From a virus, in the IMG/VR virus record IMGVR_UViG_3300045988_138661: 63,002 nt of DNA, one strand, 5' to 3'. How positions within the stretch are numbered: the stretch's first letter is position 1; every line of letters begins with the position of its first letter. Shown piece after piece: positions 24,653 through 62,762 of the stretch. The position numbers and the translations under genes were made by a program. Below the pieces are notes generated by a model. It was not told the origin of the DNA and did no database searches. It was given only the letters and a program-made list of their open reading frames with translations.

Positions 24653-25453
24653 TTGAAATATTGTGTTTCTGTGCGTCAACCTGATGTTGTTCGCGAGAAA
24701 GCTGATGAACTTATGGTTAATTATAATGATATAAATATTATGTATGATATGATTTAGAAATTTCCAAATAAACGATATATTATCAGAATCCGCAAAAATG
24801 AAGAAGTGAATTGGGAAGAGATTGATTCATTTAAGGATAAAGTCGATCTTATTGTAGCATTTGAAGATATGCTTACCCGCAATGGATGTAATATTGATGT
24901 AAAGTATTATTTTGCTTATCCTGCTACTACGTGGGCAGAAGTCCGCGTTCTCCTTGATCTTGGAGTTAGCGAACTTTTCATCGGGGCACCGCTTACATTT
25001 GATTTAAGACAATTAAATTAGCAAGCAAAAGTTCCAATTCGTATGATTGCGAATAAGTGCTATGACGATAACCTTCCAAGAGAAAATGGAATATGCGGTT
25101 CTTACGTTCGACCGGAAGACGTAGATTATTATGGAACATATGTCTCAACTTTAGAATTCGATGAACCTGCGCTCTCTAAAGAAGCTGTGCTTTTGGATAT
25201 TTATCAAAGTGGTCATTGGCAAGGTAATCTAAACCTTTTATTAACTAATTTAAATTATAATGTGGATAATCGTGGAATTCCCGAAGATTTTGGCCCCAAC
25301 CGCATCAATTGCGGTCAGCGCTGTCAGCGACAAGGGACGTGTCATTATTGTGAAACCGCATTTATATTTTCTCGTGTTATAGATAAAGCCGTTCAAGCAA
25401 GTAAGCAGAATAATCCTATCCCCGAAGCGGAAGAAGACTCAATTGACAAATAA
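24653..25453 (+). CDS. hypothetical protein (~266 aa) readable only with two in-frame TAG codons (24755, 25019)
   Basis: TTG start after RBS aaaggagtg; contains the track ORFs 24806..25021 and 25043..25453 in one frame. Confidence 0.5.
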
Positions 25454-25504
25454 AAAAAATAATGTTATAATATAAATATAAGATAAAAGATAGGAGAATA
25501 AACT

Positions 25505-26611
25505 GTGAGAGGTTTTAAAACTAATGAACTTTGGTTATTTGAATATCTGGTTCGCTCGACACAAGATGAGTTAAGAGAATATGTTGCCGATGTATTGAAA
25601 GCTAAATATACTGAAGTAGTTATTACTAAAGAGTATGTTTGTGCGGTTGGCGATATTCCTATTGCTTTAGTAGCTCATCTTGATACTGTGTTTGAGAAAC
25701 CGGTCAAAGATTTATATTATGATACAAGAAAAAATGTGCTTTGGTCGCCCGATGGTCTTGGCGCAGATGATAGAGCAGGAGTATATGCGATTCTTCATAT
25801 TTTGAGAAATACATCTTTGCGTCCTTCTATTATTTTTACCACTGATGAAGAAATTGGTGGATTGGGCGCCGAAGCATTAGTATTACAATATTTTGAGTGT
25901 CCATTTCCCAATCTGAAATATATTATTCAGTTGGATAGACAAGGCACAAATGATTGTGTGTTTTATGACCTTTACAATCCTAAATTCATTGATTACATTG
26001 AATCTTTTGGATTTGTAGAGGATTTTGGCACGTTTAGTGATATTAGTGTTTTATGTCCTGAATGGAAAATTTGTGGCGTGAATCTTTCAGTAGGTTATAA
26101 AAATGAACATAACCGTATTGAAACATTAAATGCGGGTGCTCTTTTTGATACGATTAATAAGGTAATCCGCATGCTCAAAGAGAAAGATATTCCTAATTTT
26201 GAGTATTATCGTAATTATCATAGTATTTGGTTCGATAATATTTGTAAGAATTTTCCAACTGATGGCGATGGATTCTACGTTCATTGTAGAGGATGCGGTC
26301 AGTTATTTAGTGAATATGAAACATTTCCAGTAAAGGGATTAGATGGACATACATGTTTTTATTGCCCTGATTGTATTCCCAGTAATGTTGAATGGTGTGC
26401 GGAGTGTGAAGAGGCATTTGAGATTGACCCTGCGAACCCACACAGCGAGTATTGTAAAGATTGTATTGGAGGATTAGTCAAATGTCATATGACTTCGACA
26501 TCGAAAGCATTAAAGAACAGTTCAACAAAGTCATCAGTTACTCCCAAGGAATCAGTAATCCAAAAACAGAAGAACTATTCGAAAGATTCCTCGAAGCCAA
26601 AAAAGACTTAA
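25505..26611 (+). CDS. M20/M28/M42-type zinc peptidase-like protein with C-terminal zinc ribbons
   Basis: HLDTV, GADDRAG, TDEEIGG motifs; GTG start; 3-prime end overlaps next gene by ~130 nt. Confidence 0.5.
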   Translation: MRGFKTNELWLFEYLVRSTQDELREYVADVLKAKYTEVVITKEYVCAVGDIPIALVAHLDTVFEKPVKDLYYDTRKNVLWSPDGLGADDRAGVYAILHILRNTSLRPSIIFTTDEEIGGLGAEALVLQYFECPFPNLKYIIQLDRQGTNDCVFYDLYNPKFIDYIESFGFVEDFGTFSDISVLCPEWKICGVNLSVGYKNEHNRIETLNAGALFDTINKVIRMLKEKDIPNFEYYRNYHSIWFDNICKNFPTDGDGFYVHCRGCGQLFSEYETFPVKGLDGHTCFYCPDCIPSNVEWCAECEEAFEIDPANPHSEYCKDCIGGLVKCHMTSTSKALKNSSTKSSVTPKESVIQKQKNYSKDSSKPKKT

Positions 26612-27912
26612 TTAAATTTTTTCACGGTCATTTAATTTATGAATGGCCGGAAAAGGTATCTTTTTCCTTAGATGATAAAACTAAAGAGCATCGTCTTGAA
26701 GAGTTTCTTGAAACAATTAATTATACTTATAATAATGAAGACTTAAAGGATTTTATTTCAGTAAATAAAGAAGGATTCTTTAACAATACAGTTATAGATA
26801 CTTATTTCTATAAAGATAAAAAGATTCCAAGAGGAATGAAATTAGTTAAGGCTTTTAAGTATTTTGAAGAGAATCCACGCTCTTTGGAAGATATTCAGAA
26901 TTACGCAAGTCGTATTATCCAAGAGGACAAGATTGAGGGAACATTATGTTTCTCAGTTCATCCTTTGGATTTTTTAAGCGTAAGTGAAAATACTTATAAT
27001 TGGCGCTCTTGCCATGCACTTGACGGCGAATATAGAGCAGGAAATTTATCTTACATGGTAGATAAAAGCACTTTTATTTGTTATTTGCGCGGAGCAGAGA
27101 ATCAGAAACTTCCGCATTTCCCTGAAGATGTTCTTTGGAATTCTAAGAAATGGCGTATGCTTCTTTACATGGAAGATAAGCGACGTGGTTTAATGGCTGG
27201 TCGTCAATATCCTTTTATGACAACCAATGCTTTAATTAAAATTAAAGATATTATCAATACTTTTGATAAGACTTTTCAGTTGCGTGAATGGGTAGATGGA
27301 GGTATTAATACTGTTTCTAATAGGATGAGCACTACTTCTTTTGATGAAGAAACTATTGGATTATCCGAGACATGGATTCCTATTTTATCTCGTTTATATC
27401 CTATTAGTGATATTGTTGAAGATATTGGCGAGCATACTCTTCAATATAATGATTTGCTTTATTCTTCTTGCTATTTACCCATTTATAGTTTAAAATTGTA
27501 TTATTATCCATTAGAGACTGATCTTCCTCATTGGTCTATTGGTGGCGATGTCCCTTGTTTACAATGCGGTAAAACTATTATCGAAAGTGGAGAATATATG
27601 CGATGCGGAGACTGTGAATTCAATTATGGAGTAAACGAAGATGATAATTACGGTTATTGCGCTTGTTGCGGTTCTCGTATAATCCTTGATGAAGCAAATT
27701 CCGTAGGCGATGAGAATGAATTGGTTTGCGATAGTTGTGCAGATACTTATTGTAAACGATGCGAATGTTGTAATAATTTATATTATACAGAAGATATTCA
27801 CTATCATAAAGGAACTGATATGTATTTATGTCCTTGGTGTTTTAGAGATGCTGATGAAGAAAAAGTTAATAATTTTAGGTCTTTAAAAGACTTTATACAT
27901 AATTTTAGTTAA
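26482..27912 (+). CDS. large hypothetical protein with C-terminal zinc ribbons; paralog of 22349 CDS
   Basis: start moved to ATG after RBS ggagga (track start 26461). Confidence 0.55.
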   Translation: MSYDFDIESIKEQFNKVISYSQGISNPKTEELFERFLEAKKDLIKFFHGHLIYEWPEKVSFSLDDKTKEHRLEEFLETINYTYNNEDLKDFISVNKEGFFNNTVIDTYFYKDKKIPRGMKLVKAFKYFEENPRSLEDIQNYASRIIQEDKIEGTLCFSVHPLDFLSVSENTYNWRSCHALDGEYRAGNLSYMVDKSTFICYLRGAENQKLPHFPEDVLWNSKKWRMLLYMEDKRRGLMAGRQYPFMTTNALIKIKDIINTFDKTFQLREWVDGGINTVSNRMSTTSFDEETIGLSETWIPILSRLYPISDIVEDIGEHTLQYNDLLYSSCYLPIYSLKLYYYPLETDLPHWSIGGDVPCLQCGKTIIESGEYMRCGDCEFNYGVNEDDNYGYCACCGSRIILDEANSVGDENELVCDSCADTYCKRCECCNNLYYTEDIHYHKGTDMYLCPWCFRDADEEKVNNFRSLKDFIHNFS

Positions 27913-28832: not shown

Positions 28833-29555
28833 ATGGCTGGTAGTCGTATTTCATGGAGCGATGTTCGCGCTCTATATGATACTTTAAATACTGCTTAGAC
28901 TCGTTTTTCTCAATCTCGCACGGCTGCTCCCTCAAATGAGGGGCGTCGTACGAGAGAAAGTGACATTACTACTTTAAAAAATGAAATTGAAAATTTAAGA
29001 AATGTTTCTTATGTAGGAACTTAGGCTACTTTTTCTAATTTTACCGCTCCAAGAGCTAATGAACTTATGAAACGAGTCCCTTTAGAGGAAATTAGAAGTA
29101 AACTTGATACTATAAATGGCATTTGCGCCTATGATGGAGCGAATTATACAAGCAATAATGGTTATCGTGGTGCTAACTATACAAGTAATAATAGTCAACG
29201 TTCTTCTTATTATTCAAGTAATGATGCTCAACGTTCTTCTTATTATTCAAGTAATAATGCTCAACGTGCTTCAGATTATTCAAGTAATAATGCTCAACGT
29301 TCTTCAGATTATTCAAGTAATAATGCTCAACGTTCTTCAAATTATTCAAGTAACTATACTTATTATACTGCTAATTATTCAAGTAATAATGGTCATAGAT
29401 CTGCTAACTATAGTAGTAATAATGGTAATAGATCTTCTAACTATAGTAGTAATAATTCTCAACGTTCTTCAAATTATTCAAGTAATTATACTTATAGAAG
29501 TGCTTATGCTTCTAGAAGTTCAAATCGTAGTGGCGCTGGTAGAGTACGCTCTTAA
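28833..29555 (+). CDS. repeat-rich Ser/Asn/Tyr peptide (candidate RiPP precursor, ~240 aa incl. two in-frame TAG); about eleven ~11-aa repeats (consensus NYSSNNAQRSS)
   Basis: ATG 28833 after RBS aaggagag is in frame with track ORF 29067..29555 through TAGs at 28896 and 29022. Confidence 0.5.
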
Positions 29556-29586
29556 TTTTTTGAGAAAAAGGAGTTTTATAATATAA

Positions 29587-31086
29587 ATGTTTAAAGAAAT
29601 GGATATTAGAGCAATATCTTTAGTTTCTTCATGTGGATGTAATTTACATTGTAAATATTGTCTTATTGAGAATACTTTAAATAATTGCTCTGCAAATTTA
29701 CAACATGAAACTATTAAAGCTTTAAATGATGGTACTTTTTTAAATAATGTAAAAGGTATTTTTAAACGTTTAAATCTTGATAGATATAAAATAGAATGTT
29801 TTACTTTATGGGGTCAAGAGCCTACATTGACATTACATCTTCTTACTGATCATTTGGAAGATTGGTTTAATTATTTCCCAAATATTAATCATATTGACTA
29901 TTCTACTAATGGGATGGATTTTCCTGAAAGAACTGTTAATTTTATTAAAAAGGTTGATGAATTAGCAAATAATGAACTTGCTTTAGAAGTTCAATTCTCT
30001 TATGATGGCACTTACTCAACCAATAATATTAGAAATGCTAATAATGAAAAAATCTTTGAGACTGCTTCAACTGTAATTAAAGAATTAAATAAAATTAAAT
30101 TTCATAATGTAAATGTATCTATTCAATTACATGGTGTTCTTTCTGGAGCTTTAATTCATGAACTTAATACAACTCAAAAAGTTCATGATTATTATAAAGA
30201 TTTAGATAATTTTGGATTTGAATTAGCTGATATTAATCTTAATTAGAGAGTTGAAGTAAATAGTAGTGTATCTATTTGCCCTGAGAATCCAAGAGATGGA
30301 TCAGTTGATGAACGTATTGAATATGAGTCTTTCTTACAACGCATTGTTAATATTGATGTAAGTGATTTTCATGACCCACATCTTCCAGTTAGTATTATTA
30401 TTGGTTATCGTCATCTTTATGAAGAAGTATTTTCTGATTTACATGGATTTACTGGAGAAGATCGTCCAATTACGCCCCAAGAATTAATGCGATTAGTTAT
30501 GGAAGGAAATCAAGAAGCAATTACTGTAGCTTCAAGAAATAATTTTTGTAGTGGTAATTTTAATGAATTAAAATTACTTTATGATGGTACTATGATGTCT
30601 TGTCAAAACTTTATGTTTGATCTTGATGGTAATAATGTTAAAGATGATGGTACTATTGGAGCACAATTGAGAAAAGACACTCGTCGCACTAAAACTGATT
30701 GCATTAATCTTTTAACTGATAGTGAAGAAGATATTAATAAAGTTATATATAAATATAATATGTATAAAACACATTCCTTCCCATTTATGTTTCAAGCAAC
30801 TGTAAATACTTTACAAATGCTTAATGAATGCAATCAATTAAATTCTATTTACAAGTATAATCCTGATAAATTATTAAGATTGGCATTAATTGCAACAAAA
30901 ATTGATGCTTGTACTTATAATAATTTTATTTCTTCTGGTAGCGCGTTGTTAAGAAGTGTAGGCACTTTAAGAACTCAATCAGCACTATTTATGTATGTAG
31001 ATAGAGAAAATAATTTACTTAAACCCGAAGAAGAATGGTTCCGAAATACTGAAAATATGAATGAATATAGAGGAGAAAGTAATTAA
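29587..31086 (+). CDS. radical SAM enzyme (~499 aa, one in-frame TAG at 30244)
   Basis: CGCNLHCKYC = CX3CX2C motif near N-terminus; continuous frame with track ORF 30487..31086. Confidence 0.6.
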
Positions 31087-32489
31087 TGAATATTAGTGAA
31101 GGTTGTCAATTAGATAATAATAAATATTTTGAAAAATTTATAGATAATTATATTTTTAATAGGGATCACCAAGAGGAAGGATACTGGATTAATGGAGAGT
31201 CTTTTGAGCTTATTATAAGACCCGAATGTAATCAACAATGTGAATATTGTTATGTTGCACGGTATGGAGATAAACTCTATCCGATGGAGAAACGCGCCGA
31301 TAAGGAAACTCTTGTTCATAATACAGATATTATTTTGAATTATATCTTTAAAGAAAGAAAAGTTTTATTTCATGAAATGGAACTTTTTGCTGGAGATTTA
31401 TTTTATGATGATATTGGATTTGAAATTCTCGAATTAATGTTTAAATATTATAAAGAATTATTTGATGAACATCCAAATATTTTTAATTTCCATCCTCGTA
31501 TTGTAATTCCTAATAATTTTAGTTTTGCTATTGATGATAAAAAAGCTAAAAAAATGGAAGAGCTTTTAGCTAAATTTAAAACTATCAATATGGAAATAAG
31601 CCTTTCTTGTTCTATAGATGGACCTTATAATAGTGTGCGCGAGCGCGATAAAGATGATAGTTATTATACTAAAATTCTTGAATTCCTTCAAAGAAATCCT
31701 TGTGGTATTCATCCTATGATTTCTCCAAGTAATATTGAGAGTGCTATTAAGAATTTTGATTGGTGGGACGAACAATATGAAAAGTATAATCTTGCTGGTG
31801 AAGACATTCATGATTTTCAACCTATGTATTTGGAAGTCCGCAATGATGAATGGACTGATGAGAAATTAGATCATTATCTTGAATTTTTAACTCATATGCT
31901 TGAAGTAAGATTTCATAAAAATGGTGAGTCTGTAGATAAATTGGCAAGACATATTTTCTTAGGAGATGGAAAAGAAGGTTCTTTACCTTGTCTTGGTAAT
32001 TATGACCCTATTGGATTAACTTCTACTTGGAATAGTGAAGAATATACTTGCGCGATTTCGCATTAGACTTGTCTTTATGTGGCGAGTTTTGAATTTGCGC
32101 CTTGCCATAGAACTTCTTATCCTCAGTTTCTTGGTGGACGTCTTGATGTAAAAGATGACAAAGTAGTTGGTATTACTGCAATTAATCCTACTGTGTATAG
32201 TGTAATTAAAACGAATAATACACATATGAATATTGGTTGTTTAACTTGTCCTTTTGATCCTTATTGTTTAAAAGGATGTTTAGGCGCTCAGTATGAAGCC
32301 ACAGGTGATTTATTTGTTCCCGGTGAAAGCGTTTGTAAATTACATAAAACACATTTAACTTTTTTAGTAAAGACTTATTGTGAGTTGGGATTAACTAAAA
32401 TTGCAGTTGAAAAAAATTATTTTAAGAGTGAAGCAGATAAAGAAAAATGGCTTACTTTATGTCGTAAATTGGGGTATTATAATGATTGA
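31086..32489 (+). CDS. radical SAM enzyme with SPASM-like C-terminal Cys cluster (~467 aa, TAG at 32064)
   Basis: CNQQCEYC (CX3CX2C); C-terminal CLTCPFDPYCLKGCLGAQ. Confidence 0.6.
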
Positions 32490-32784
32490 AGAAATGAAAA
32501 GACAAATTCAACACTTAGATGATACTTTTGATCCTTCTAATGTTGGAGATTATAAAGATTTATTATATGTAATCTATTTAAATTGGATTGAAAATAATGG
32601 AGAAAACGAAGAAGTCAATTCTCTTATTAACAATTTAATTAAAAGAATTATTGATTCTAGCATTAATGATAATAATAATTGTGATAATTGTAATGAAGAT
32701 GAAGATCCTAATATGAGTGAAGATTATTTAATTTATCGCCATTTCTTAGGATATAAAATTCCTGGCTATTGGCGTAATCATTAA
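32486..32784 (+). CDS. hypothetical acidic protein (~99 aa)
   Basis: ATGA overlap. Confidence 0.45.
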
Positions 32785-33372
32785 TGTTAATTAATTTATA
32801 TAATGCTCGTCAAACTTTATTAAGATCAGTAAAGTTTGACGAGCGTGAATGCGATGATATTGTTTTTGGATTAAATTTTCCAAAAGAAATTACTTTTTGC
32901 AAAATTGTAAATAATTCAAATGATATAGAATATTCTTCATTAAATTATCTATATAGTCAATTAAAAGATTTAGAATATAAAGATATAAAAATTATTGAAT
33001 TAGTTTTTAATCAAAAACAAAAATTTACGTTTGAATCTACAGTAAAATCTATTTTTTATAGAACAATGTTATATTCAAGTTAGGGACAATTGGAATTTAA
33101 ATTATATTTAACTTTACGATTTGAAGAAGAACATCCAATTATTTACGATAAAGAAGAATAGATTTTAAAGTGTGACAAAAATTGTAAACAGTTAAATAGA
33201 AAAATACATCGTTGTGAATTTTTTCATAGTGATTTAAATGATATAAATGAAATTTGTACGGAATGTTTTTTGTAGGAAAGAGATAACCAAATAAAAGAAT
33301 TGGTTAATTATAATAGAGATATTATAAATGTTTTGGAGAATAAATATGGAAATAGATAGAACTAAAAATTAT
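32784..33372 (+). CDS. hypothetical protein (~196 aa with four in-frame TAG); Cys pairs
   Basis: manual codon walk: only TAG interruptions until TAA. Confidence 0.4.
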
Positions 33373-35423
33373 CAAGGGATTCCTCCTTATACTAATCCAA
33401 TATGGAAATCGGTTTATGATGGTGTTAGTTTAGAAATGCATATTGTAGATCATTGTAATCTTAATTGCGCAGGATGTAATCATTTTTCCCCTTTAGCAGA
33501 ACCTTGGTATATTGATTTAGATGATTTCCGTGATCAGATTACTTTTGCTTATAAAAAAATTCCAAATATAAAACTTTTTATGATTTTAGGTGGAGAACCT
33601 ACTTTGCATCCAAAATTATTTGAAATATGTTAGATTGCTAGAGAAGTTTTCCCAAAAAATAAAGTAGAAATTAAAATATTAAGCAATGGGTGTCATTTAC
33701 AAGATGCTTTTAAACATGAGAAAGAATATCAAGATATGGGAGTAATATTTGATATTACTACTTATGGGAAATATACTGATCATAAAGCGGTAGAATATTT
33801 AGACAGTCATGGTTTAGGTTTTAATCATAATTCAAGATTATTTATGCGACAATAGCTTGTAAATGAAGCAGGAACTACTGATATAAATGAAGTATATTTT
33901 CATAAATGCCCGCATTAGTTACCTTGTTTTACTTTAAAAAATTATAAAATTTATATATGTCCTTTTTCTGCACATTTGGATATTTATAGAAAAAAATATA
34001 ATGTAAATATTCCAGAAGATGAAAGTGATTATTTGCGATTAGAGGATATAAATAATTTAGATGATTTACATAATTTTATTTTTAAGCCTAAAAATATTTG
34101 TAGATATTGCGATGGAACTATGTCTAAAGCCTCTTGGATTTGGCACAAATATTATGATACAAAATCGGAATTTATAGTTCCAATGGAAGATGCTTATTTT
34201 AGAGATTATGATTTTTATTTAAAATTAGTTAATGATAAAGAAAATTTTTTAGAAAATTATTAGTTATTTAAAGAAAACAGATGCCCAATTGAATTTAGAT
34301 ATAATACTTATTATTTAAAAAAATGTTTTACTCGTTTTATTGATGGAAAAATGGATATTATAATACCTTATTATAATATGAATGATTAGCAAATTATTAA
34401 TTTGTATAATAATTTATCTACCCAAACAATTATAAAAGATTGTTGTGTATATTTTATTAGCGACCATTCTTTCTATGATAAAAAACTTATTGAGATATTT
34501 GATGAAGCGAGTTTTCCTTGTTTCTTTTTTAAGAATTTAAAACGAAAAGGACCAGGTCTAACTCGTAATTTAGGATTAGAATATTCTTTTAATAAATATG
34601 TGTTATTTTGGGATTCTGATGATTTATTCCCAAATGATAATGTTTTAGAAATTTTATATAATTCAATAAAACATAATGAGAAAGATTTTGGAGTATTTAA
34701 AATAGCTAATACTGATAAATCAGTTGAAAAGATTAATTTAATTCTTAAAAGAGATTTTCTTAATAAAAATAATATAAAATATTCAAAATTTTTCTTTGGA
34801 GAAGACAGTATTTTCTTGGATAGATGTGATATTTATGGTGAATCTTATGAGTTAGAAGACTAGAATTTAGGTCTTTATATAACTTAGTTAGAAGACAATC
34901 CTAATTGTTTATCTCATTCTAATTCTAACATGGTAATTACAGCATATATTAATAAAATAATTGTATTTTTTGCTAATTTTATTGATGTTTTGAAATTAGA
35001 AAATATTGATGAAAATCGTAAACAAAGTACTTTAAGACGGAATCTTTATAGAATTATTAATGAAATAAAATCAATAAGTGATTTAGATTCTTCTTTTTAT
35101 GGATATGAAAATAATTATTTTTTAGAAAAAATTCTTCTTTTAATTTATTATATTTTATATACTATGTATAATTTATATAGTAACAAAGAAGATTTTAATA
35201 ATATTCCCAATTTGTGTAATTTAGATAAACAAATTATAGAAGATATCAAAAGTTAGAAAATTAAATTTAGTCTTCTAAGAGGAGAATGTATAACTAATTT
35301 TGATGATATTAAAAATGAAATTTATCCATTGTTAAATTATCTTAACAATGAATTATGCTATGTGCCTACTTATGAATGGTTTCTGAATTATTTAGATGGA
35401 AAAGGAGAGAGTATTTATGATTG
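33328..35423 (+). CDS. radical SAM domain fused to GT2-like glycosyltransferase-like region (~698 codons, eight in-frame TAG)
   Basis: CNLNCAGC CX3CX2C and GGEPTLHP near N-terminus; later GPGLTRNLG..YVLFWDSDDLF resembles GT2 DxD region; track ORFs 33328,33976,34402,34930 all in frame 1 separated only by TAG. Confidence 0.5.
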
Positions 35424-35599
35424 AAACTTATCAAGAATATAAAGAAAAAGTTTATTTTCTTCTAAATAATTTTTTAGATTTTACTAAAGGAGATAAACCT
35501 TATTTATTTAATATGCCTTCAAAATTAGGCAATCTTCCTAATCTAAATGAATATTTATATTTTTGTTTTAATAAATCTGATGCAGGAGAAAATAAATGA
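35418..35599 (+). CDS. hypothetical small protein (60 aa)
   Basis: overlapping start, TGA stop. Confidence 0.4.
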
Positions 35600-51480: not shown

Positions 51481-51730
51481 CCGAACGCAGGATTGGTTCG
51501 ATTCCAATAATCAGCTGTAATTAGTGTAATGGTTGAGCACAGCGTTCGCGTCTTAAATATATCAAAGACACCACAAACTGCGAATTTTCTATAACAGAAG
51601 ATACAGAGATATTGTTTTACCAATAATTTTTGATTGCCTATTGAAGGTGTAGTCTGTTTGGGGTAAGAGAGAATTAATCGACAAATAGATGAAATGAATT
51701 GATTGAAATTCTTTGGTGTCTTGTTTTATA

Positions 51731-51928
51731 CGGCCGTCGCCAAAATGGTAAGGCACAGGACTTTCTCAAAATCAGTTAAATGAGTTATATAATATGACGG
51801 GGTTAAGTAGTATTATATAAGTTCTGTTAGTAGGCTTCCGGTTCTATAAAACCGAGAATGTTGGTGCAAGTCCAACTTTTGAGCCCTGACTCCTGCATCT
51901 GCTGGTTCGAGTCCAGCCGGCCGTGCCA
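51731..51928 (+). tRNA. tRNA gene split in anticodon loop by ~120-145-nt insertion (Gln CUG/UUG or Glu UUC depending on junction)
   Basis: 5-prime half acggccg tc gcc aaaatggtaa ggc a cagga ct..; 3-prime half ..tcctg catct gctgg ttcgagt ccagc cggccgt g cca; all stems complementary. Confidence 0.45.
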
Positions 51929-52061
51929 CCAGAGTTCTGCTAAGTTATATATTTAATTAAGAATTTGCTACTCTGAAAGAATATATAATGAATAAAAAAT
52001 TGGGTCTAAATAACGCAGATAATCCGCTCTGGACCATAAATTCAATTTAAGGAGAAAAATT

Positions 52062-52181
52062 ATGATTTGTCGCACTAAAGAGCATTATGAAAATCGCATT
52101 GCGAAGTTGTATTCCCATAGTGAAGTTATGAATCAGCGCCTCATTAATAAGATGAAGCGAAAACTCCGTAAGTTGAATTAA
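52062..52181 (+). CDS. small basic protein (39 aa)
   Basis: RBS taaggagaaaaatt; unlisted small ORF directly upstream of suppressor tRNA. Confidence 0.3.
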   Translation: MICRTKEHYENRIAKLYSHSEVMNQRLINKMKRKLRKLN

Positions 52182-52190
52182 GGAGTTTAT

Positions 52191-52262
52191 TGAGGGGTAG
52201 CATAGCGGCAAATGCGCTGGTCTCTAAAACCAGATAAGTGGGATCGACACCCACCCCCTCCG
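52191..52262 (+). tRNA. suppressor tRNA, anticodon CUA (reads UAG); Gln-like features
   Basis: acceptor tgagggg/cccctcc (1-72 mismatch), U8 A9, D-arm gcat-agcggcaa-atgc, anticodon arm ctggt-ctCTAaa-accag, 4-nt variable loop, T-arm gtggg-atcgaca-cccac, G73; no encoded CCA. Confidence 0.65.
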
Positions 52263-52496
52263 CGGTGCTAAAAACAAAACCTCCTCGTGGTAGCACTGGG
52301 TAATGCTAATTTGTTTATAAAGGTAATAAAGGCAATATGTATAAAAGTCATTGATAAGTCCTTTTATACGATAGGAAGTAGGATTAGAAGCGTCCATCTT
52401 TTAAAGAGCGAAATGCGGCGATCGGGTATTTCCTTGGTCCAGTAGACACACTATCGGAGGTTGTGGGTTAACCTAATTAAAACCCTCAAAATAAAA

Positions 52497-52859
52497 ATGT
52501 TTGATATTTATTTAAATTATTGCGAAGAAATTTTTGGTGGTTCTCATAAGTTTACCAAAAATGGCCTTGGTTATGATGTTTTAAATATTCATAATAATCG
52601 AGATAATTTTAAAATTATACTTGCGGATAAAGTGCGGTTTGGAGAATATACTTTATTTCATCGTGCTTATGGAGCTAGACTTGATGGTTCTTATGAGTGG
52701 CATGTCCAATTAAAATCTAAATATTTAGATTTTCTAATTTATTGTGCTTTCGCGCATGATTTTAATAAATATAATAACATTCCTTATAATCGAGAAGATT
52801 ATTGGCGTTTTATTAAAGATTATAAGAAATATATTTCGGAGATTAACGTGATAAGGTAG
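52497..52859 (+). CDS. hypothetical protein (~120 aa); 3-prime end overlaps tRNA-Tyr
   Basis: ORF track 52461..52859; ATG 52497 preferred; terminating codon is TAG, so true end uncertain under recoding. Confidence 0.3.
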   Translation: MFDIYLNYCEEIFGGSHKFTKNGLGYDVLNIHNNRDNFKIILADKVRFGEYTLFHRAYGARLDGSYEWHVQLKSKYLDFLIYCAFAHDFNKYNNIPYNREDYWRFIKDYKKYISEINVIR

Positions 52860-52926
52860 ACACCCCGGTCTGTAAAACCGGTGCGCTTAGTCGCTCGAGT
52901 GGGTTCGATTCCCTCATCTCCGACCA
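52837..52926 (+). tRNA. tRNA-Tyr (GUA), class II
   Basis: acceptor cggagat/atctccg perfect, loop ctGTAaa, long variable arm gcgcttagtcgc, T-loop ttcgatt, A73 CCA; two extra nt between acceptor and D-stem. Confidence 0.6.
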
Positions 52927-53445
52927 AAGTATTTGGCAGTATACTTTATAGTAATCGCAAAAACTGCTTATCGTACCTGAGTAAGTGGCAAGGTCGTAGA
53001 TGGCGACGGCGTTGTTTATTTAAAACGATAGGTTTCTTTTCCTAACAGGCTGAAGAAAAGACGTTAACCACAACGAAAGAGTGATTAAGAATAGGTAAGG
53101 AATATTTATATTAAAGGTGATTTGGCACTATTGTTAATTTTAATGTTGATCGGTGCGGAATAAGTAAGATTTCCTATTTAAATCTAACCAAATTGAATAC
53201 TGAAAACAAACCGAGGAAATGCTCTTAAATGGAGTTTGATTGTTCTTTGATGGTGGAAGGAAGCGTAAGGCAACCTGCGGGTTAGCGTTTGCGGAGTAAA
53301 AGAACATGATGACAAAATTTAAGAGCATTTTTGTTTGCTTAAATAAGAGCAGTTAATGTGGCTTGACCGGCATCAAGCGCAAGGACCGAAAACCGCAATT
53401 TAAAATGCTTTTAGAAATTTTTAAGATAAAAAAGGAGGAAATTAA

Positions 53446-54969
53446 ATGTCATATTTTAATGCTAGTTTGGACTGTGAAAATGGTACAATATATTGCTCTG
53501 GATCAGTAGATCCTCCTGTCATTACATCAATAGAACTTTATATTCGTATTAAAATAAATGGTATAGACTCTGGTTATATTTATGTTGGAAGCGGTTCAAA
53601 CAGAATACGTTTTAATGAAGAGATTCCAAATTATGATCATGTTAACTTTGATAGTTATAATGATTATGAATTAATAGTATTAGATGGTGATTTATATGAA
53701 TTAGGTGCTTATACTCCTTGCACTGGTTCTTTTTATGCTTCATCATCGGGAGGAGGAGGAGGAGGCGGTGGATCGGGCGGAACTGATCCAATGTACGCTT
53801 GTTATGATGTTACAACTGGAAATTATATAAACGGTTGGACGCAAGGTAGTTTTGGTATGACCGCTCCCTCTTATGGTAGTAGTTATACTTATTTAGGATA
53901 TTGCCCTGGTAATTCAGAATAGGAATGTTTAAATTATTATACTAATAATGGCACTACATGGAGTCAAGATTCTACTTATATAGTAGGAGATTGTAGTTAT
54001 GTTATATTTTTTTATAGACAAAATTTATCTTATGCTTATATAACTTATTATTATAATGGAGGATCTGGTAGTTATAATAATGGAGCTCAAAATGCTTTTT
54101 CAAGTACAACTCAACCTTGGAACATATATTTAGATACTCCTTCGCGCTCTGGATATAATTTTTTAGGATGGACAACAGACAATTCATCAGCTTATGTGAG
54201 TAGTCCTATACAAGCATATAATGGTTCAACTTATACATTATATGCTATGTGGTAGCGAATTTATTATTATACCTATATAACCTATCACTATAATGGAGGA
54301 TCTGGTAGTTATAGTGATGGATAGCAAGTAAGTTATTCAAGTGTCAATTCTAGTCGAACTATTACTTTAGATACTCCAACAAGAGCAAATTATACTTTTT
54401 TAGGTTGGGGAACCAGTTCTTCTTCTGCTGATATTGGCACACAACTATAGGTGTCATCTACAAGCACTGTATATAAAACTTTATACGCAATTTGGCGTAG
54501 AAATACAATTATTGTAACTTATAATGCAAATGGAGGTTCTGGTGGACCCGGATCATAGACTGTTAATACCAATTCTTCTTTTAATATAAATGGATCTAAT
54601 TTTCCAACAAAGTCTAATTATATTTTTAAAGGATGGTCTACATCGTCTTCAGCAAAAACTGCAACTTATAAAAAAGGAGCAACACCTTCAATTTCTACTG
54701 GTACATCTAATATAACTTATTATGCAGTTTGGTGGCCTGTATTTACTTGGAAAGATTATTCCAGAAGTGAAGCAAATACTTTCGCAGGATATATAAATAC
54801 TTATCTAAGTAAATCAATCTCTTCTATTGATGACACAAATCCTCTGCGGTTAGTTATTTGGTTTAATGCAATAGCTACGGCATTAAACAATAATACTAGA
54901 CTTGCATCAGGAGACGCAAGTTTTAAAGCACAATTAGATACTCTATTAACTGCATATAATAATTATTAA
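53446..54969 (+). CDS. surface-binding / receptor-binding candidate with three Listeria-Bacteroides (Flg_new-type) repeats (~507 codons, about six in-frame TAG)
   Basis: RBS aaaggaggaa; repeats GYNFLGWTT..YTLYAMW, NYTFLGWGT..TLYAIW, NYIFKGWST..YYAVW; ends TAA 54967; terminator hairpin 54977-55010. Confidence 0.55.
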
Positions 54970-55360: not shown

Positions 55361-56614
55361 TTGGCTGATGTTTATATGAAATCAAAATTTTATTTTAAAC
55401 GCGGAAAGGCAGCTTCTTGGGCTGAAAAAAATGTACTCTTAGGCCCTGGTGAGCCTGGGTTTGAAATAGATACTGGTAGATTGAAAGTTGGCGATGGTAT
55501 TCGCACTTGGAATGATCTTCCTTACCTTACAGAAAATGAAATAAAAAACGGAATAAATGATGTTGCTTATTTTATTGGATAGAAAGAATCTTTACCAGAA
55601 GATCCAAATACTAAAGAAGGTACAATGTGTTTAGTCGGTGAAGATTTTTATATTTATGATGGAAAAGAATGGAGAGAATTAAAAAGCAAATCTTCTCAAG
55701 GAACTATTGAAGTTATAAAAATAAAAGGTGAAGATCAAGAATCTTCTTCTGCTGATGAAGTAGAAATTAATGGAACAAAATATTCCACTATTGAAGAAGC
55801 TATTCAAAATACCACTAATAATGATACAATAATTTTGTAGAAAACAGTCAAAAATATTAACATTCCAGAAGGAAAAAATATTAATATTGATTTAAATAAT
55901 ATCAACATCTTAAATAACGAAGACAATCCAGTTAAAATTAATAATAACGCTTCTCTAATTATTTCGGGAGAAGGATGCGTTGAATGTAATAAACATGGTA
56001 AAGCATCTATTGAAAATAATGGAAATACAACTATTATAAATGGTGAATATAAGCGTTCTATTGATGAAAAAGGTAATGGATATTACGTAATAGTAAACCA
56101 TGGCGAAATGTCTATTTATGATGGAATATTTTCTTCTCCTGGTGGATTATCTAGTATGATTGAAAATGGATATTATGATTATCTTTCTCAATACCATTTA
56201 GGCGAGTCTGCGGAATATCCTAAATTAATTATTAATGGTGGTACTTTTATTAATACTTATACTACTATTAAAAATGATGATGCTGGTATTTGTGAAATTA
56301 ATGGTGGTAATTTTTATGGTATGCTTTATAACGTTGGTAAAAGTTTAACTATAAATGATGGTTATTTCTATACTAATGATGGCTATGAAATTATTCAATG
56401 TAAAAAAAATAATGATGATATTAATGCTGGTATTTTAACTATTAATGGAGGAATTTTTGAAACTACTTGCGATAAAATTCTTTCTAGTATAAATAATGCC
56501 GAAATTATTATTAAAGGTGGAAAATTTAATAAACCTCTACCCGAAGAATTTATTGCTTCTGGATATAAACAAAAATTAGTAGATGGTTATTATAATATAA
56601 TAAAGGAGGGATAA
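55361..56614 (+). CDS. tail fibre / beta-helix-like structural protein (~417 codons, two in-frame TAG)
   Basis: track ORFs 55361, 55625, 56108 share frame 2; N-terminal GDGIRTWNDLPYL motif shared with 56991 and 61419 products. Confidence 0.5.
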
Positions 56615-56990: not shown

Positions 56991-58229
56991 ATGGCTAGTA
57001 AGACCTTAAATACTCGCATCCAAATTCGCAATGACCTCGCGGCGACCTGGACTGAAAAAAATCCTGTGCTCCTTAAAGGTGAAATGGGTGTCGAGACTGA
57101 TACTCGTAAAATTAAAATTGGCGATGGCTTAAGTAAGTGGTCTGCTCTTGGTTATTCTGGGGCAGATGTTGCTGATATTGAAAAAGTTATTGCCGACAAT
57201 CGTGATACTACCTATTCTTTAGAACCAGTTGCTGATCAAACTGATGCTCAAGCTCTTGGTACAATTGAGTCTCCTAAAGATGGTGACACTGCCATTATTA
57301 AGCGTGTTATTTCTGGCGACAAAGCTTCTTATACCGCTTATGTTTATGATGGCACTTGGAAAGCAATGGATGGCAACTATAATGCTAATAATGTTTACTT
57401 TGATAAAGATTTGACTTATACGGCTAATATTGGCGTTAAGACTGTTCCCGATTCTGGCTCCGGCACTATTGCAGCTGCTGGTAAGAATGTTCAACAAGTT
57501 TTTGCTGATATTCTTGCTAAAGAAGAGAATCCTGTCACTACTCAACCTAGTGCTTCTATGAGCTCTTCTAATATTGGAGCTTATGAGGCAGGTACTGATG
57601 TAACTATTCAATACAGTATTTCTACCAATCCTGGTTCTTATACTTATGGACCTAATCCAACAGGTGTTACTTTCTCTGGTCATAAGGCTACTTTTAATGG
57701 TGAAACAGTTACTGGTGCTTCTGGAACCTTTACATCTGTTAAAGTTACTGATTCTACTAATTTAAGTATTAGTGGTTCTGTTGATTATTCTAACGGTGAA
57801 ATTCCTGTGACCAATTTAGGTAATAACTATACTTCTGGTCAGATTAAGACCGGTACCAAGACTCTTTCTAAGGGTACTTTGACTGGTTATCGTAACTGGT
57901 TCTATGGTTATAAAGCTGGCGGCGCTACTATTGATGTTTCTGCACTTGATTCTGCTAAGATTCGTGCTTTAAAGGCACAAAATGGTAGTTTCCCTGCTAC
58001 TCTTAGTACAAACAAAATGCAACAGATGTTCTTTGCCATTCCAAAAGGCAGAAAAACTGAAGTGTCTGTTGCTAATAATGTTAATGGTGCTCCTTGTACT
58101 GTTACTAAAGTAACTGATGTTATGGTTGAAGGTGCTAATGGCTTTACTGCTGTTGCCTATGATGTCTGGTATGTTAATAATGCAGCTGCTGACGGTGGCG
58201 CAAATACATATAAGATTACTGTTAAGTAA
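56991..58229 (+). CDS. tail fibre-like protein (412 aa)
   Basis: RBS taggagga; N-terminal KIGDGLSKWSALGY motif; Ser/Thr/Gly-rich beta-rich sequence. Confidence 0.55.
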   Translation: MASKTLNTRIQIRNDLAATWTEKNPVLLKGEMGVETDTRKIKIGDGLSKWSALGYSGADVADIEKVIADNRDTTYSLEPVADQTDAQALGTIESPKDGDTAIIKRVISGDKASYTAYVYDGTWKAMDGNYNANNVYFDKDLTYTANIGVKTVPDSGSGTIAAAGKNVQQVFADILAKEENPVTTQPSASMSSSNIGAYEAGTDVTIQYSISTNPGSYTYGPNPTGVTFSGHKATFNGETVTGASGTFTSVKVTDSTNLSISGSVDYSNGEIPVTNLGNNYTSGQIKTGTKTLSKGTLTGYRNWFYGYKAGGATIDVSALDSAKIRALKAQNGSFPATLSTNKMQQMFFAIPKGRKTEVSVANNVNGAPCTVTKVTDVMVEGANGFTAVAYDVWYVNNAAADGGANTYKITVK

Positions 58230-58245: not shown

Positions 58246-61200
58246 ATGACTCGCGAAGAATTTTTTGCCGCTAAAAATAAAGGCGCTTTATGGGATGTTG
58301 GCGTAAGTATTAACCGCACTAACCCACTGCCCCTTGATAAGAATGCGGTTTTTGATACTTATGAAAATGCCCTTACTTATGCTAAAGGTGTTTTAGCTTA
58401 TCCTGGTCAGTTTATCGCTGTCGTTGGCGAAGACGCGGTTACCGGTTATTTAATCACTGTTGCAGGTGGTGAAGGAGCTACTCTTGTTAAGCTCGCTCAA
58501 ACTTCTGGTTCTGGTGATGTTAACGAGCAATTAAATGCTTTATCTACTAAAGTTAATAATATCGTTAATGAAATTGGTAAAGCCTCTACAGATGGCTCCG
58601 ATGCTACTGGTCTTTATAAACTTATTGAAGCTAATAAAAATGCTATTACTGTTTTAAATGGTACTGTTCAGACAGAGGGTTCAGTCAAGAAAACTGTTTC
58701 TGATGAAATTGCTAAAGTTATTGGCAAAGCGCCTGAGACTTTTGATACTTTACAAGAAATTGCTACTTGGATTGAAACTCATGGTACACAAGCTACTGGA
58801 ATGCAGACTGCTATTAGCAAACTTGAAACTATTCTTGAAGGTATTGGTGGCGAAGGAGAAAAGGCTACTGTAGTTGCTTATGTTACCGATGCTATTAATG
58901 CATTAAAGAATGGTGATATTAAAACTGCTTAGGATAATTTAGCAGCTCTTACCACACGTGTAGATGGACATGATACTAAGCTCGGTGAACTTGAAACTGC
59001 GATTGCTGGGGTAAAGGCTACTGCGGATGCAGCTGTTGTTGCTAACGCTAGTATCACTGGTGGAACAGCTACTAAAGTTACTTTTGATAGTAAGGGCTTA
59101 ATTACTGGTAGTAGTTCTTTAGTTGCGGAAGATATTCCAAATATTGCTATCAGTTAGGTTGATAACCTTTCTAGTGAGTTAAGCAAGAAACAAAATAATC
59201 TTGCTATTAGCGATAAATATAGTGAAACTACTTCTAAGATTGCTTCTATGAAGGATATTACTGATGCTTCTAATGCAATTCTTGGTGATTCTGCCACTGA
59301 TACTGAAGCTTCTAATACTCTGGCTGGTCTTAAGAAGTATGCTGATAAAAAAGCTTCTGACGCTGAGTCTAATGCTAAAGCCGATACAAAGAGTAAAACC
59401 GATGCTCTTGATGCTCGTTTAAAGAGCGTTGAAGATGCTGTTGGTTCTACTGGTAGTGTTTCTGAAGCTATTAAAGCTGCTAAGGAAGAAGCTATTAATG
59501 CCGCTGCTACTGACGCTACAACTAAAGTTAATGCTGCTAAAACTGATATCCTTGGTGCAGAAGGTTATACTCATACTGTAAAGGATGCTTATGAATTAGC
59601 TGATGGTAAGACTACTATGGCTGAGGTTGAAGCCAAGGATTATGCTACCAAGAGTTATGTTGATACTCAAGATGGCGTACTCAAAGGCACTGTTGCTGAC
59701 CAAGATACCGAAGTTACCATTTATGGTGCTCGTAAGTTAGCTCAGAAAGGCATTGATGACGCAGCTGCTGCTAAAACTGCCGCTGATAATTACAATACTG
59801 CTTTAACTAATACTATCAGTACTGTTAAGAGCGATTTACTTGGCTCTACTGAAGATGATAGCACTAAAGAAACCATTCGTGGCGCACGTAAGTATTCTGA
59901 AGCTAAAGCTAATGCTGTCCTTGGTACTGCTCAAGATACTGCTTCTGAAAAGACAGTTTATGGTGCATTCGCCGCAGCTAAAGCCGCACAGGACAAGGCT
60001 AATGCCAATGAAACGGCTATTGGTTCTGATACTACTACTGGTTCAGTAAAGGGTCGTATCAAAACTTTAGAAACCACTTCTGCTAGCTATGGCGCTCGTA
60101 TTACTAAGAACGAATCCGATATTGCCTCTCTCGTTGGTAATATGTCTGGCGTCTTCCATTTCAAGGGCGCAGCAACTAAAACTGGTACTGAACTTTATGT
60201 AAGTGGCGCTCAAGTAGTTGAAAAAGCAGTTGGTGACGTTTATACCGTTGGCGAGGAAGAATACGCTTGGTCTGGATCTGCCTGGATTATGCTTGGTATT
60301 ACTACCGATCTTTCTAACTATTATGATAAGAGCGCAATTGATAAAAAGATTGCAGGCTTCTCTGGGGCTTTCCACTTCAAGGGTGTTGCTAATCAATTCG
60401 ATAATGTTGGTGCTCCTATTGTTTCTAATCCTGCTGAAGGTGACGTTTGGCTTGATAATGATAATGCACAATGGGCTTGGAATGGCGAGAAATGGATTAA
60501 ACTTGGTTTCTTAACTGATCTTACTGGTTATGCTACCACTGCTGAAGTTGATGCTAAAATTGAAGGTGCTCTTCAAGGACTTTATACTTTTAAGGGTGAA
60601 ATTGAATCTCTTGATAATGTTGTTAGTCCAACCCGTGGCGACGTTTATGTCGTTCCTCAAAAAGATGGCTCTAAAAAGCAATATGCCTATTCTGGTGATG
60701 GCAACTGGGTAGAAATCTCTACTAATGTCGATTTAAGTGCTTATGCTTTAACTACTGCGGTTGATGAAAAGATCCGTGTTGCCAAGAATCAAGCAAATAA
60801 TCTTGCTACTGAGCTTTCCGCCACTGCTGAAACTAATGCTAAAGCTTATACTGACACTCAGCTTGATACTCTTAAGGGTGGTTCTACTAAGACCATTAAA
60901 GAAATTCAAACTGTTGCTGAAAGTGCTCAAACTCAGGCTGGTACTAATGCTAACGCAATTACTGCAATTAATACTTCTCTCACTGAGACTGGAACTGTTG
61001 GTAGAAAGATAAAAGCTAATGCGGATGCTATTAGAGCTATCCAAGAGGCAGATTATGCAAGAATTACTTCTGAGAAAATCGCCCAGTGGGATGCTGCTCA
61101 ACCTAATGTAATTGAAAAGATTCAAGTTAATGGCACTGAAATCGCAATTAGTGAAAAGACTGTTAATATTCCTCTTGCTACCGCAGCTCGCGCAGGTTTA

Positions 61201-61332
61201 ATTATTAGCTCTGATGCTGAAAATGCTATTAGCGTTTCTGATACTGGTGTAGCTACTGTTAATAATATAAATGTTAATAAATTAGTTCAAACCGCTGGTG
61301 ATGAACTTATTCTTAACGGTGGAAATGCTTAA
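58246..61332 (+). CDS. large tail fibre protein (~1028 codons, two in-frame TAG) with Ala-rich coiled-coil segment and three ~70-aa repeats (FHFKG..GDVY..W.G..W..LG)
   Basis: track ORFs 58246 and 59248 are in frame 1, separated only by TAG at 58930 and 59155. Confidence 0.55.
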
Positions 61333-61351: not shown

Positions 61352-61380
61352 AGAGGGGATTTATTTCCCCTCTTTATTTC
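61352..61380 (+). terminator. rho-independent terminator (aagaggggatttatttcccctctt + T)
   Basis: inverted repeat. Confidence 0.65.
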
Positions 61381-61418
61381 ATATATATAGATATTTTTAA
61401 ATATGGAGGTTCTTAAAA

Positions 61419-62762
61419 ATGGCTAATACAGCATTTAATACTCGTATTAAATTAAAGTATGATACTCTGGCCAATTGGACTACTAATGAAGCAAAAGTTT
61501 TATTAGCTGGTGAAGTTGGTCTTTGTTATGTGCCTTCTGTAACTTCTGGAACTACTACAACTGCCCCTACTATCTTATTTAAAGTCGGTGATGGCGAAAC
61601 AGCTTGGGGAAGATTACCTTGGGGTTCCGGTCTTGCTGCGGACGTTTATGATTGGGCTAAAACTCCCACAAAACCATCTTATGATTATAGTGAGATTAAA
61701 AATACTCCCACTATGACTGTAGATACTAATACTACTTATAAATTAGTTCAAGATGGTACTAATAATCATAAATTTACTTTACAAAGTAAAGAAAAGAATA
61801 GTGAAAATTGGATTCCAGTATCTACTATTACTATTCCAGATAATAACAATAACCAAACTATTACCGTTGGGTCTACTTCCTTTGGGGCAGATGATGCTGT
61901 AAAGTTAGTGGCTGGTGATGGAATTACTATTACTCCTGATTCAACTGGGAAGACAATTACAATTACTGCTAGTAAAGTTGCTAATGCAACTCATGCCGAT
62001 AATGCGACTAATGCTACAAGCGCTGGTAAAGTAGCTAACGCTTTAACTCTTCAGGTTGGTGGTACTACTAAAGCTACATTTGATGGTTCTTCTGCGAAAA
62101 CCTTTAATATTACTGCAGGAGATCTTGGTCTTAGCTCTGCGATGCATTTTGTTGGTGCTGCTACTGTTGCTATTACCGAAGATTCTAAAGTTGATCCGGA
62201 AATCACTGGTTATACTTTTGCTAATGCTCAAAAAGGTGACGTAGTTCTTTATAACCATTTAGAATTTGTATGGGACGGCACTAAGTGGGAAAAACTTGGT
62301 GATGATAGCTCTTATGCTTTAAAGACTATCACTGCTACTGCTACTGATGATGACGTAGTAGTTTTAACCGGTACTTCTGGTTCTAATGGCGTCACTTTTG
62401 ATGCCAAACATGCTAAGAAAGGTCCAACAGGTGGCGCAACTAAGGGCGCAACCGCAAATGTAAGTGTTTCTGGTTATGGCGCTTCTGGATCCATTAAAGT
62501 TCCAAAAGTCGTAGTTGATGAATATGGTCATACTACTGGTTTAACTGAACAAACATTAACTATTACGATGCCAAATCAGCAAACTCTTCCTGTCGCTGGA
62601 AGTGTTGCTCCTAAAAATCTTGGAACAGCTACAGTTGGTACTTCTGCTAAATATGCTCGTGAAGACCACGTTCATAAGATGCCCACCTTAGATGAAATTA
62701 GTGTTAATACTAATGCTAATTATGTCATTTTTGACTGCGGAAGTTCTACGGTAAATATTTAA
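61419..62762 (+). CDS. tail fibre-like protein (447 aa) sharing N-terminal motif and the FHF/MHFVG repeat with neighbours
   Basis: RBS atggaggt; FKVGDGETAWGRLPW; MHFVGAAT..GDVVLY..WDGTKWEKLG. Confidence 0.55.
   Translation: MANTAFNTRIKLKYDTLANWTTNEAKVLLAGEVGLCYVPSVTSGTTTTAPTILFKVGDGETAWGRLPWGSGLAADVYDWAKTPTKPSYDYSEIKNTPTMTVDTNTTYKLVQDGTNNHKFTLQSKEKNSENWIPVSTITIPDNNNNQTITVGSTSFGADDAVKLVAGDGITITPDSTGKTITITASKVANATHADNATNATSAGKVANALTLQVGGTTKATFDGSSAKTFNITAGDLGLSSAMHFVGAATVAITEDSKVDPEITGYTFANAQKGDVVLYNHLEFVWDGTKWEKLGDDSSYALKTITATATDDDVVVLTGTSGSNGVTFDAKHAKKGPTGGATKGATANVSVSGYGASGSIKVPKVVVDEYGHTTGLTEQTLTITMPNQQTLPVAGSVAPKNLGTATVGTSAKYAREDHVHKMPTLDEISVNTNANYVIFDCGSSTVNI

Follow-up and report, generated by a model that had tools for sequence, protein, structure and literature searches.

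Genetic code 15, in which TAG encodes glutamine, has been described in several groups of gut phages, among them the crAss-like phages, the Lak phages and the 'gemstone' clades Garnet, Amethyst, Topaz and Agate, and recoding has been proposed to gate the translation of late genes in these code-15 phages (10.1101/2021.08.26.457843). Metaproteomic support for code 15 in crAss-like phages has also been presented (PMC9523058). The phage phAss-1 (proposed Phassvirus), a human-gut member of the Caudoviricetes, reads TAG as glutamine in 28% of its open reading frames (ORFs); it carries transfer RNA (tRNA) genes of the tRNA-Sup-CTA type but no dedicated aminoacyl-tRNA synthetase, and it belongs to a wider group that includes Enterococcus phage EF1 (PMC10607447). 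Code-change genes, namely those for release factor 2 (RF2) and glutaminyl-tRNA synthetase (GlnRS), occur in only some of the described code-15 members. Here we analyzed a 63,002-base stretch of viral DNA, the IMG/VR record IMGVR_UViG_3300045988_138661 (hereafter the window; guanine plus cytosine (GC) content 34.7%), the later genes of which had been noted in a preliminary description to contain in-frame TAG codons. Our preferred reading, to which we assign a probability of roughly 0.88, is that this phage uses code 15, with TAG read as glutamine and only TAA and TGA terminating, and that a suppressor tRNA would bring about a switch to late-gene translation.

The window resembles the crAss-like, Lak and gemstone phages in that its TAG codons cluster in structural and lysis genes, it encodes a CUA suppressor tRNA and no gene stops at TAG, while the remaining genes suit the standard code as well, the GC content is low and the source is the gut. 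It differs from them in its lineage, which is Herelleviridae-like, with an ATPase and an exonuclease ~40% identical to those of Bacillus and Enterococcus phages, and in the placement of TAG, which is also found in a leftward module beside the early region and in an island of radical S-adenosylmethionine (SAM) and YcaO genes. phAss-1 supplies the best phage-database match to the suppressor tRNA (its 'tRNA-TERM', 76.7%). However, the phage studied here is ~190 kb in size compared with 136 kb for phAss-1, the exonucleases of the two are 28% identical, there is no DNA similarity between them, and phAss-1 has three suppressor tRNAs where the window has one. The Escherichia coli suppressor supE, a tRNA-Gln with anticodon CUA, inserts glutamine at UAG in competition with release factor 1 (RF1). 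Unlike the supE case, the TAG codons of the window are fixed at 67 positions, with up to nine in one gene, and the genes that hold them probably include essential ones; near-complete read-through, rather than partial suppression, would therefore be needed. Phages using code 4 or code 25, which reassign TGA to tryptophan or glycine, follow the same general strategy of stop reassignment, whereas the window keeps TGA as a stop. Recoding of this kind is a well-documented phenomenon, to which the window contributes a large phage, Herelleviridae-like and with a probable Bacillota host, without changing anything known. More unusual than the recoding itself are the island, a tRNA-like gene and a promoter-dense early block.

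Stop usage and in-frame TAG codons

The gene set consisted of the calls attached to public contigs that match the window at 100% identity; these calls already read through TAG and are independent of our own ORF picking. The 82 genes of the window end in TAA (63) or TGA (19) and never in TAG, and none of the 32 genes in the flanks (9-10 kb on each side, same contig) has a TAG stop. There are 67 in-frame TAG codons, spread over 20 genes of the window, none of which contains an in-frame TAA or TGA; the preliminary description had likewise observed neither codon in such genes. Between positions 24653 and 62762 lie 34 genes with 9750 codons: 16 of these hold 58 TAG codons, again with no in-frame TAA or TGA, and the other 18 are TAG-free. 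It had been claimed that at least 17 genes in this region are continuous only across TAG and that none of the genes checked stops at TAG. The first figure agrees with the public calls once two further small TAG-containing ORFs from our own calling (25635-25805 and 44243-44428) are considered, which bring the 16 genes to 17-18, and the second is borne out by the 82 stops. The association of TAG with 'later' genes was correct for the 16 genes but incomplete, as a module on the minus strand at 7017-8624, which is also recoded, had been missed.

Reading TAG as a sense codon had an effect on gene calling that was specific to this codon. On the plus strand of 24652-62762, the coding density was 0.599 under code 11 and 0.810 with TAG as sense, compared with 0.619 and 0.651 when TGA and TAA, respectively, were the sense codon, and the median ORF length increased from 112 to 194 residues with TAG as sense only. 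In the block at 9.0-24.65 kb the sense reading brought no gain in coding density. Thus, the comparison of table 15 with control codes that had been suggested gave a rise in density for TAG and not for TGA or TAA. Recoding of TGA or TAA was also considered as a candidate and was rejected, as TGA ends 19 of the 82 genes and the controls yielded no such gain. Out-of-frame TAG is common in early and late genes alike (10-20 per 1000 codons), indicating that the in-frame pattern is not an effect of composition.

The consequences for annotation are considerable. The longest code-11 fragment of some TAG-containing genes is only 42-158 residues, and code 11 destroys 20 genes of the window, including endolysin-like and tail-fibre-like genes and those of the biosynthetic island, so that table 15 is needed. 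The earlier statement that code-11 calling fragments or misses these genes therefore stands, since calling with TAG as sense gives longer ORFs that have homologue and Pfam support.

Partition of TAG codons and a candidate translational switch

Two blocks of the window are devoid of TAG (features are on the plus strand unless stated otherwise). The first, at 1062-6123, is a promoter-dense block of eight small genes of early type with a GC content of 44% and no TAG in 1046 codons; it extends 9.4 kb upstream of the window, where 23 more genes contain no TAG. The second, at 9082-24481, comprises 35 genes that are compatible with the standard code as well as code 15, with no TAG in 4697 codons and all stops being TAA or TGA. 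Together, the two blocks, which are read identically under the two codes, hold 0 TAG in 5743 codons (43 genes) compared with 67 in 10327 codons elsewhere (Fisher p = 1.9e-13). Orthologues of the TAG-free genes are also TAG-free in the relative L020, in which several TAG positions are likewise retained. The separation is unusually sharp, with TAG-free promoter-dense blocks beside modules in which up to 5% of the codons are TAG.

Promoters of the form TTGACA-N17-TATAAT with at most one mismatch occur 23 times in the window, compared with 1.3 expected, and 14 of them fall at 474-5714. The upstream flank (L022, 1-10000) contains 13 perfect copies in the 10 kb searched. The promoters of the early block are of the sigma-70/sigma-A type, many with an extended -10 TG, and number about one per small gene; the GC content of this block is 42-44%, compared with 35% for the whole window. 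In our own comparison, these dense promoters resemble the promoter-rich host-takeover regions of SPO1-type phages. A second class of promoter has a conserved AT-rich spacer (TTGACATTTTwAAAAAAAATAwTATATAAT) and is found at 5686 and 20126, in the TAG-free blocks, and at 42345, 42847, 44816, 48346 and 50376, at the tRNA clusters.

The latter sites flank or lie within an array of ~18 tRNAs interspersed among small genes (42416-52926; ARAGORN and Rfam). The array includes the tRNA with anticodon CUA, the candidate TAG decoder, at 52191-52263, which was identified by ARAGORN, scores 52.3 bits against the Rfam tRNA model and folds into a cloverleaf. By motif search, a perfect TTGACA-N17-TATAAT promoter is located 43 nucleotides before the first tRNA (42345-42373), promoters of the same class are found near the array at 42847, 44816, 48346 and 50376, and the perfect promoter at 50376-50404 is the nearest upstream of the stretch encoding tRNA-Ile, tRNA-Pro, tRNA-Val and the suppressor. 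We infer that the suppressor is co-transcribed from this last promoter.

We propose a mechanism analogous to that put forward by Borges et al. (bioRxiv 10.1101/2021.08.26.457843). The TAG-free genes would be translated under the standard code of the host. Host-type consensus promoters would drive transcription of the suppressor tRNA together with the rest of the array, host enzymes would charge it with glutamine and, as it accumulates, it would compete with host RF1 at TAG. TAG-bearing genes could then be completed only after this switch, and the recoding may act as a translational gate or timer. The genes predicted to be gated encode the tail-fibre-like and other putative virion proteins, the endolysin-like protein, the glycine-rich proteins, the radical-SAM/YcaO island and the leftward module. 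The demands on such a switch would be high. With nine TAG codons among the 180 codons of the gene at 35596-36138, almost no full-length product would be made at ordinary levels of suppression, suggesting that RF1 is largely neutralized or outcompeted. Indeed, the genes with seven to nine TAG codons imply nearly complete reassignment, and RF1 is probably neutralized or overwhelmed by a factor outside those identified in the window. These genes sharpen the question, for all such phages, of how host RF1 is overcome, and the clade could serve as a comparative system.

Several observations weigh against this reading or qualify it. RF2, GlnRS and other code-change genes were not seen among the scanned window proteins or the Pfam labels of ~20 kb of flanks, and the 'late' timing is one that we infer from gene content alone. 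The TAG-bearing gene at 24713-25453 is located directly behind a consensus host-type promoter found by motif search (24600-24628), and the module with the highest TAG density (7017-8624) adjoins the early blocks; the pattern is therefore modular, with no simple early/late split. Three TAG codons, in the genes starting at 32784, 39031 and 7017 (the last on the minus strand), are positioned one to three codons before a TAA or TGA stop, and each of them is individually indistinguishable from a stop, although the L001 orthologue of one shares the downstream TAA as its stop, a point in favour of read-through. The nucleotide after the in-frame TAG codons (+4) shows no bias (p = 0.54). Finally, in a comparison with 83 tRNAs of the phage group, the CUA tRNA did not cluster with tRNA-Gln and is ~60% identical to tRNAs for valine, tryptophan and glutamine alike, so that overall similarity gives no indication of its isotype, and its glutamine identity is judged from few determinants described in E. 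coli.

The promoter upstream of gene 24713 and the placement of the leftward module would suit an alternative that we consider unlikely but that survives better than the others, in which the recoding is constitutive and there is no switch. The host would tolerate or read TAG, for example because it is without RF1, or the suppressor would be abundant from the start, and the TAG-free blocks would reflect recent acquisition or composition rather than regulation. Such a scheme is also consistent with the tRNA array being fed by host-type promoters of a class that occurs in the early blocks, and with the strong differences in GC content and codon usage between early and late genes: from 9082-24481 to 24713-62762 the GC content decreases from 39% to 32%, the AAG share of lysine codons from 0.67 to 0.24 and the CAG share of glutamine codons from 0.73 to 0.19. 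However, the complete absence of TAG, as sense codon or as stop, from 43 genes in the window and 23 in the flank is hard to account for without selection for dual-code compatibility, and the same partition is conserved in L020. Native reading of TAG as glutamine is not known from any bacterium. Moreover, the predicted hosts of code-15 phages use the standard code (10.1101/2021.08.26.457843). With regard to codon usage, we also observed that some of the phage tRNAs read A-ending codons.

Residue at TAG and products of read-through

The residue encoded by TAG was deduced from codon-level alignments of window genes to the DNA of relatives, in which only real codons were kept; the residues of database homologues at the TAG positions of the fusion of radical SAM and glycosyltransferase-2 (GT2) domains were set aside as circular, because their contigs had already been translated with TAG as glutamine. 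In gene set 1 (L001 and L002, biosynthetic island), glutamine was found at 15 of 77 TAG-aligned sites, a 10.1-fold enrichment over background, and in gene set 2 (L020 and L021, glycine-rich and other genes), at 7 of 30 sites, a 12.7-fold enrichment. Most of the glutamine codons opposite TAG are CAA, and a change from TAG to CAA takes two mutations. In a BLOSUM62-based likelihood, glutamine exceeded arginine, the next residue, by 18.2 ln units in set 1 and the next amino acid by 8.4 ln units in set 2, and for 12 of 12 control codons this method returned the correct residue. Among 98%-identical strains, two of the four distinct changes at TAG are exchanges between TAG and CAG. Judged from these alignments, TAG is read as glutamine, that is, the phage uses genetic code 15. 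Within the internal Flg_new repeats of one protein a TAG is aligned to glutamine, too few sites to count. Depletion of CAG as compensation for TAG was considered and rejected, as the G-ending codons of lysine, glutamate and leucine fall in parallel; the shift therefore reflects GC content and is uninformative on the amino acid.

Some features of the candidate decoder would suit this assignment. The CUA tRNA has a 5-nucleotide variable loop and a normal D-loop and is thus of type I, and the label 'Pyl' given to it by ARAGORN is due to the anticodon alone. It displays a U1.C72 mismatch, G73, G2-C71, G10 and U35. GlnRS prefers tRNAs with a weak 1:72 pair and G73, and we take U1 with its weak pair, together with G73, G2-C71, G10 and U35, to fit the identity rules of E. 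coli GlnRS. The U1.C72 mismatch and G73 are common to the suppressor of a diverged relative. In the window, the suppressor is located between tRNA-Val and tRNA-Tyr, and no canonical tRNA-Gln was found in the window. In the relative L021, the order is tRNA-Val, tRNA-Gln(TTG), tRNA-Gln(CTG), a CTA suppressor 1 nucleotide downstream, and tRNA-Tyr; this CUA tRNA adjoining tRNA-Gln(CTG) is not the one that shares the U1.C72 and G73 determinants. A comparison of the CUA tRNA with E. coli tRNAs gave no match.

It is very unlikely that TAG is a sense codon for a different residue, be it lysine, arginine, glutamate, tryptophan, tyrosine or pyrrolysine. The 'Pyl' label, the frequency with which lysine, threonine and asparagine are also aligned to TAG, and the equal overall similarity of the suppressor to the tryptophan and valine tRNAs could be taken to support such a residue. 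By contrast, the likelihood favours glutamine in two independent sets of genes with the controls recovered, tryptophan stands opposite TAG at 1 of 107 sites only, and the type I architecture excludes the bacterial leucine, serine and tyrosine tRNAs and is unlike that of tRNA-Pyl. Pyrrolysine was rejected as a candidate because this architecture is wrong for it and the proteins scanned included no pyl gene products.

Conserved domains and homologues extend over the TAG positions: full-length homologues, a check suggested in the preliminary description, were recovered, and Pfam domains continue across TAG. The radical SAM and GT2 domains cross TAG positions in the fusion protein (33346-35424), as do ALK_LTK_GRD in the two glycine-rich proteins (39602-41017 and 40999-42336) and NAGPA in the endolysin-like protein (49509-50366). 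The fusion protein has 97 homologues, mostly of 630-710 residues, and homologues of the glycine-rich protein number in the thousands; a sequence search of the PDB with the glycine-rich protein found nothing. The relatives of the fusion protein contain nine TAG codons each, mostly at positions other than those in the window. In the diverged relatives L001 (72% nucleotide identity to the window), L002 (on a 213,871-bp contig), L020 and L021, the reading frames are kept while TAG is mostly found at different codons. Protein identity with L001 is 52-70% (48% for gene 35596) and persists downstream of TAG codons. The public products on the contigs of the relatives cannot be translated under table 11, indicating that public pipelines already apply an alternative code to this clade.

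That the TAG codons are genuine stops, and the genes pseudogenes, assembly or sequencing errors or chance fusions of ORFs, is scarcely credible and effectively already refuted: the three TAG codons next to a TAA or TGA could terminate, but the identical sequence was assembled independently in several samples, the frames are interrupted by TAG only and never by TAA or TGA, conservation with L001 goes on past TAG and domains span it, TAG positions turn over in relatives while the frames persist, and the TGA and TAA controls brought no gain.

Lineage, TAG-bearing genes and accessory elements

Long stretches of the window are 100% identical to contigs that come from independent assemblies of several human-gut metagenomes, including ERZ28595197 scaffold_23 (190,948 bp) and one of 168,350 bp. 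The window maps onto both ends of the 190,948-bp contig, indicating that this contig is circularly permuted relative to the window. The gene content is of phage type, with tail-fibre-like Mtd_N proteins, an endolysin-like NAGPA and SPOR protein and the array of ~18 tRNAs; TerL is not in the window. The best cultured relatives, identified with the AAA ATPase (~42% identity), are Herelleviridae-type phages of Bacillus and Enterococcus, and the exonuclease is ~39% identical to those of Enterococcus phages, with phage EF1 as its best named match. Shine-Dalgarno-like motifs precede 66 of the 82 genes, compared with 10% in the background, suggesting that the host, probably one of the Bacillota, uses such sites. 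Judged by sequence, the window is part of a ~190-kb tailed human-gut phage that is Herelleviridae-like. Megablast found no DNA-level match to deposited phages and a 534-residue protein had no match among them, an IMG/VR search with the 165-residue protein of the leftward module returned a single marginal locus, and one TAG-free product of the window was not on record by exact look-up. The clade is widespread in public gut metagenomes: the search with the glycine-rich protein recovered >100 variants of this one clade protein, on contigs of up to ~194 kb. Near-identical strains vary in the presence of genes, with contig L010 being without ~7.5 kb of the TAG-free block (window 14747-22275) and L006 without gene 39031 and both glycine-rich protein genes (window 38934-42305).

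The leftward module (7017-8624, minus strand), which is outside the range of the preliminary description, has the highest TAG density in the window, with nine TAG codons in four of its five genes and 577 codons. Three of the four encode proteins of 81 residues (7017-7262, two TAG), 143 residues (7490-7921, four TAG) and 58 residues (7921-8097, one TAG). The fourth (8127-8624, two TAG) encodes a 165-residue protein of a conserved family, with 19 homologues, most of 162-182 residues, that cover 97-100% of the query and span both TAG codons.

On the plus strand, the first TAG-bearing gene is that at 24713-25453 (246 residues, two TAG), with one of the two TAG codons corresponding to CAG in L020. 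Downstream of the island are a 184-residue gene with three TAG codons, all conserved in L020 (39031-39585), and the two paralogous glycine-rich ALK_LTK_GRD proteins assigned by Pfam, of 471 residues with seven TAG (39602-41017) and 445 residues with six (40999-42336). A small ORF of 51 residues at 48442-48597 contains three TAG codons, all conserved in L020. It is located directly behind a consensus-type promoter and overlaps the start of the TAG-free gene at 48581-49099 by 17 nucleotides; it might serve as a leader that depends on the suppressor, or as a device for translational coupling. The endolysin-like protein (49509-50366; 285 residues, two TAG) was recognized by its NAGPA and SPOR domains and is followed by a 182-residue gene with one TAG (52497-53045; contig gene calls) and by a 507-residue protein with three Flg_new repeats and five TAG codons (53446-54969; domains).

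Tail-fibre-like proteins form a row of at least three paralogues, related in their N-terminal domains of the Mtd_N type and encoded at 55376-56614, 56991-58229 and L013 16015-17283. TAG is found in only one of the tail-fibre-like paralogues, the 412-residue protein at 55376-56614, which was assigned by its Mtd_N domain and contains two TAG codons. A fourth tail-fibre-like gene (61419-62762) has only a weak N-terminal PHROG match. The same block includes a large protein of 1028 residues with two TAG codons (58246-61332), which itself has no tail annotation.

The tRNA callers disagree at some positions of the array: Rfam adds a tRNA with anticodon CAT at 45677-45752 that was missed by ARAGORN, and the tRNA-Ala(TGC) at 43955-44033 and tRNA-Ile(AAT) at 44039-44113 called by ARAGORN are below the Rfam threshold. 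At the start of the array, a tRNA-like gene at 42416-42486 scores 37.5 bits against the Rfam tRNA model but has an anticodon loop of six nucleotides, in which ARAGORN assigns no anticodon. The gene is present in eight related genomes (L020 12769-12839; L024-L030), where its body is invariant and its loop varies, being CUUCAA in two relatives and AUUUAA in six. The window copy has the loop CUUUAA and differs further by several changes in the D-arm, variable region and T-loop. The central triplet of the loop, UUA or UCA, is complementary to the stop codons TAA and TGA. The gene may be a relic undergoing decay or may serve as a second decoder aimed at stop codons. We regard it as improbable that the clade modulates termination at more than one stop codon through this gene, as it might if the gene is functional; in that event, wobble would allow a UUA anticodon to read UAG as well, which could help to account for the completion of genes with up to nine TAG codons against RF1.

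The island (28833-38906) has a GC content of 21-30% and resembles a peptide-modification gene cluster of the kind that acts on ribosomally synthesized and post-translationally modified peptides. It begins with a repeat-rich serine/asparagine protein of 240 residues with two TAG codons (28833-29555; contig gene calls), in which the repeats are ~11 residues long and of the SSNNAQRSSDY type. This gene is followed by that for a radical SAM protein (29587-31086; 499 residues), the single TAG of which corresponds to CAA in L001, and by an unannotated 467-residue protein with a CxxxCxxC motif (31086-32489), in which the single TAG is CAG in 98%-identical strains and CAA in L001. Next are a 193-residue gene with four TAG (32784-33365; contig gene calls), the radical SAM-GT2 fusion, which is supported by Pfam and homologues and contains eight TAG codons in 692 residues, and the 180-residue gene at 35596-36138, in which 5% of the codons are TAG and the longest code-11 fragment is 42 residues. 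A YcaO protein (36463-38016) and a weakly U32-peptidase-like protein are also encoded. The island is syntenic in L001 and in part in L002 but absent from L020, in which the flanking proteins are 81-99% identical. As the whole island is missing from an otherwise similar relative, it is accessory and probably mobile, and the TAG codons in its genes suggest that it circulates among code-15 phages.

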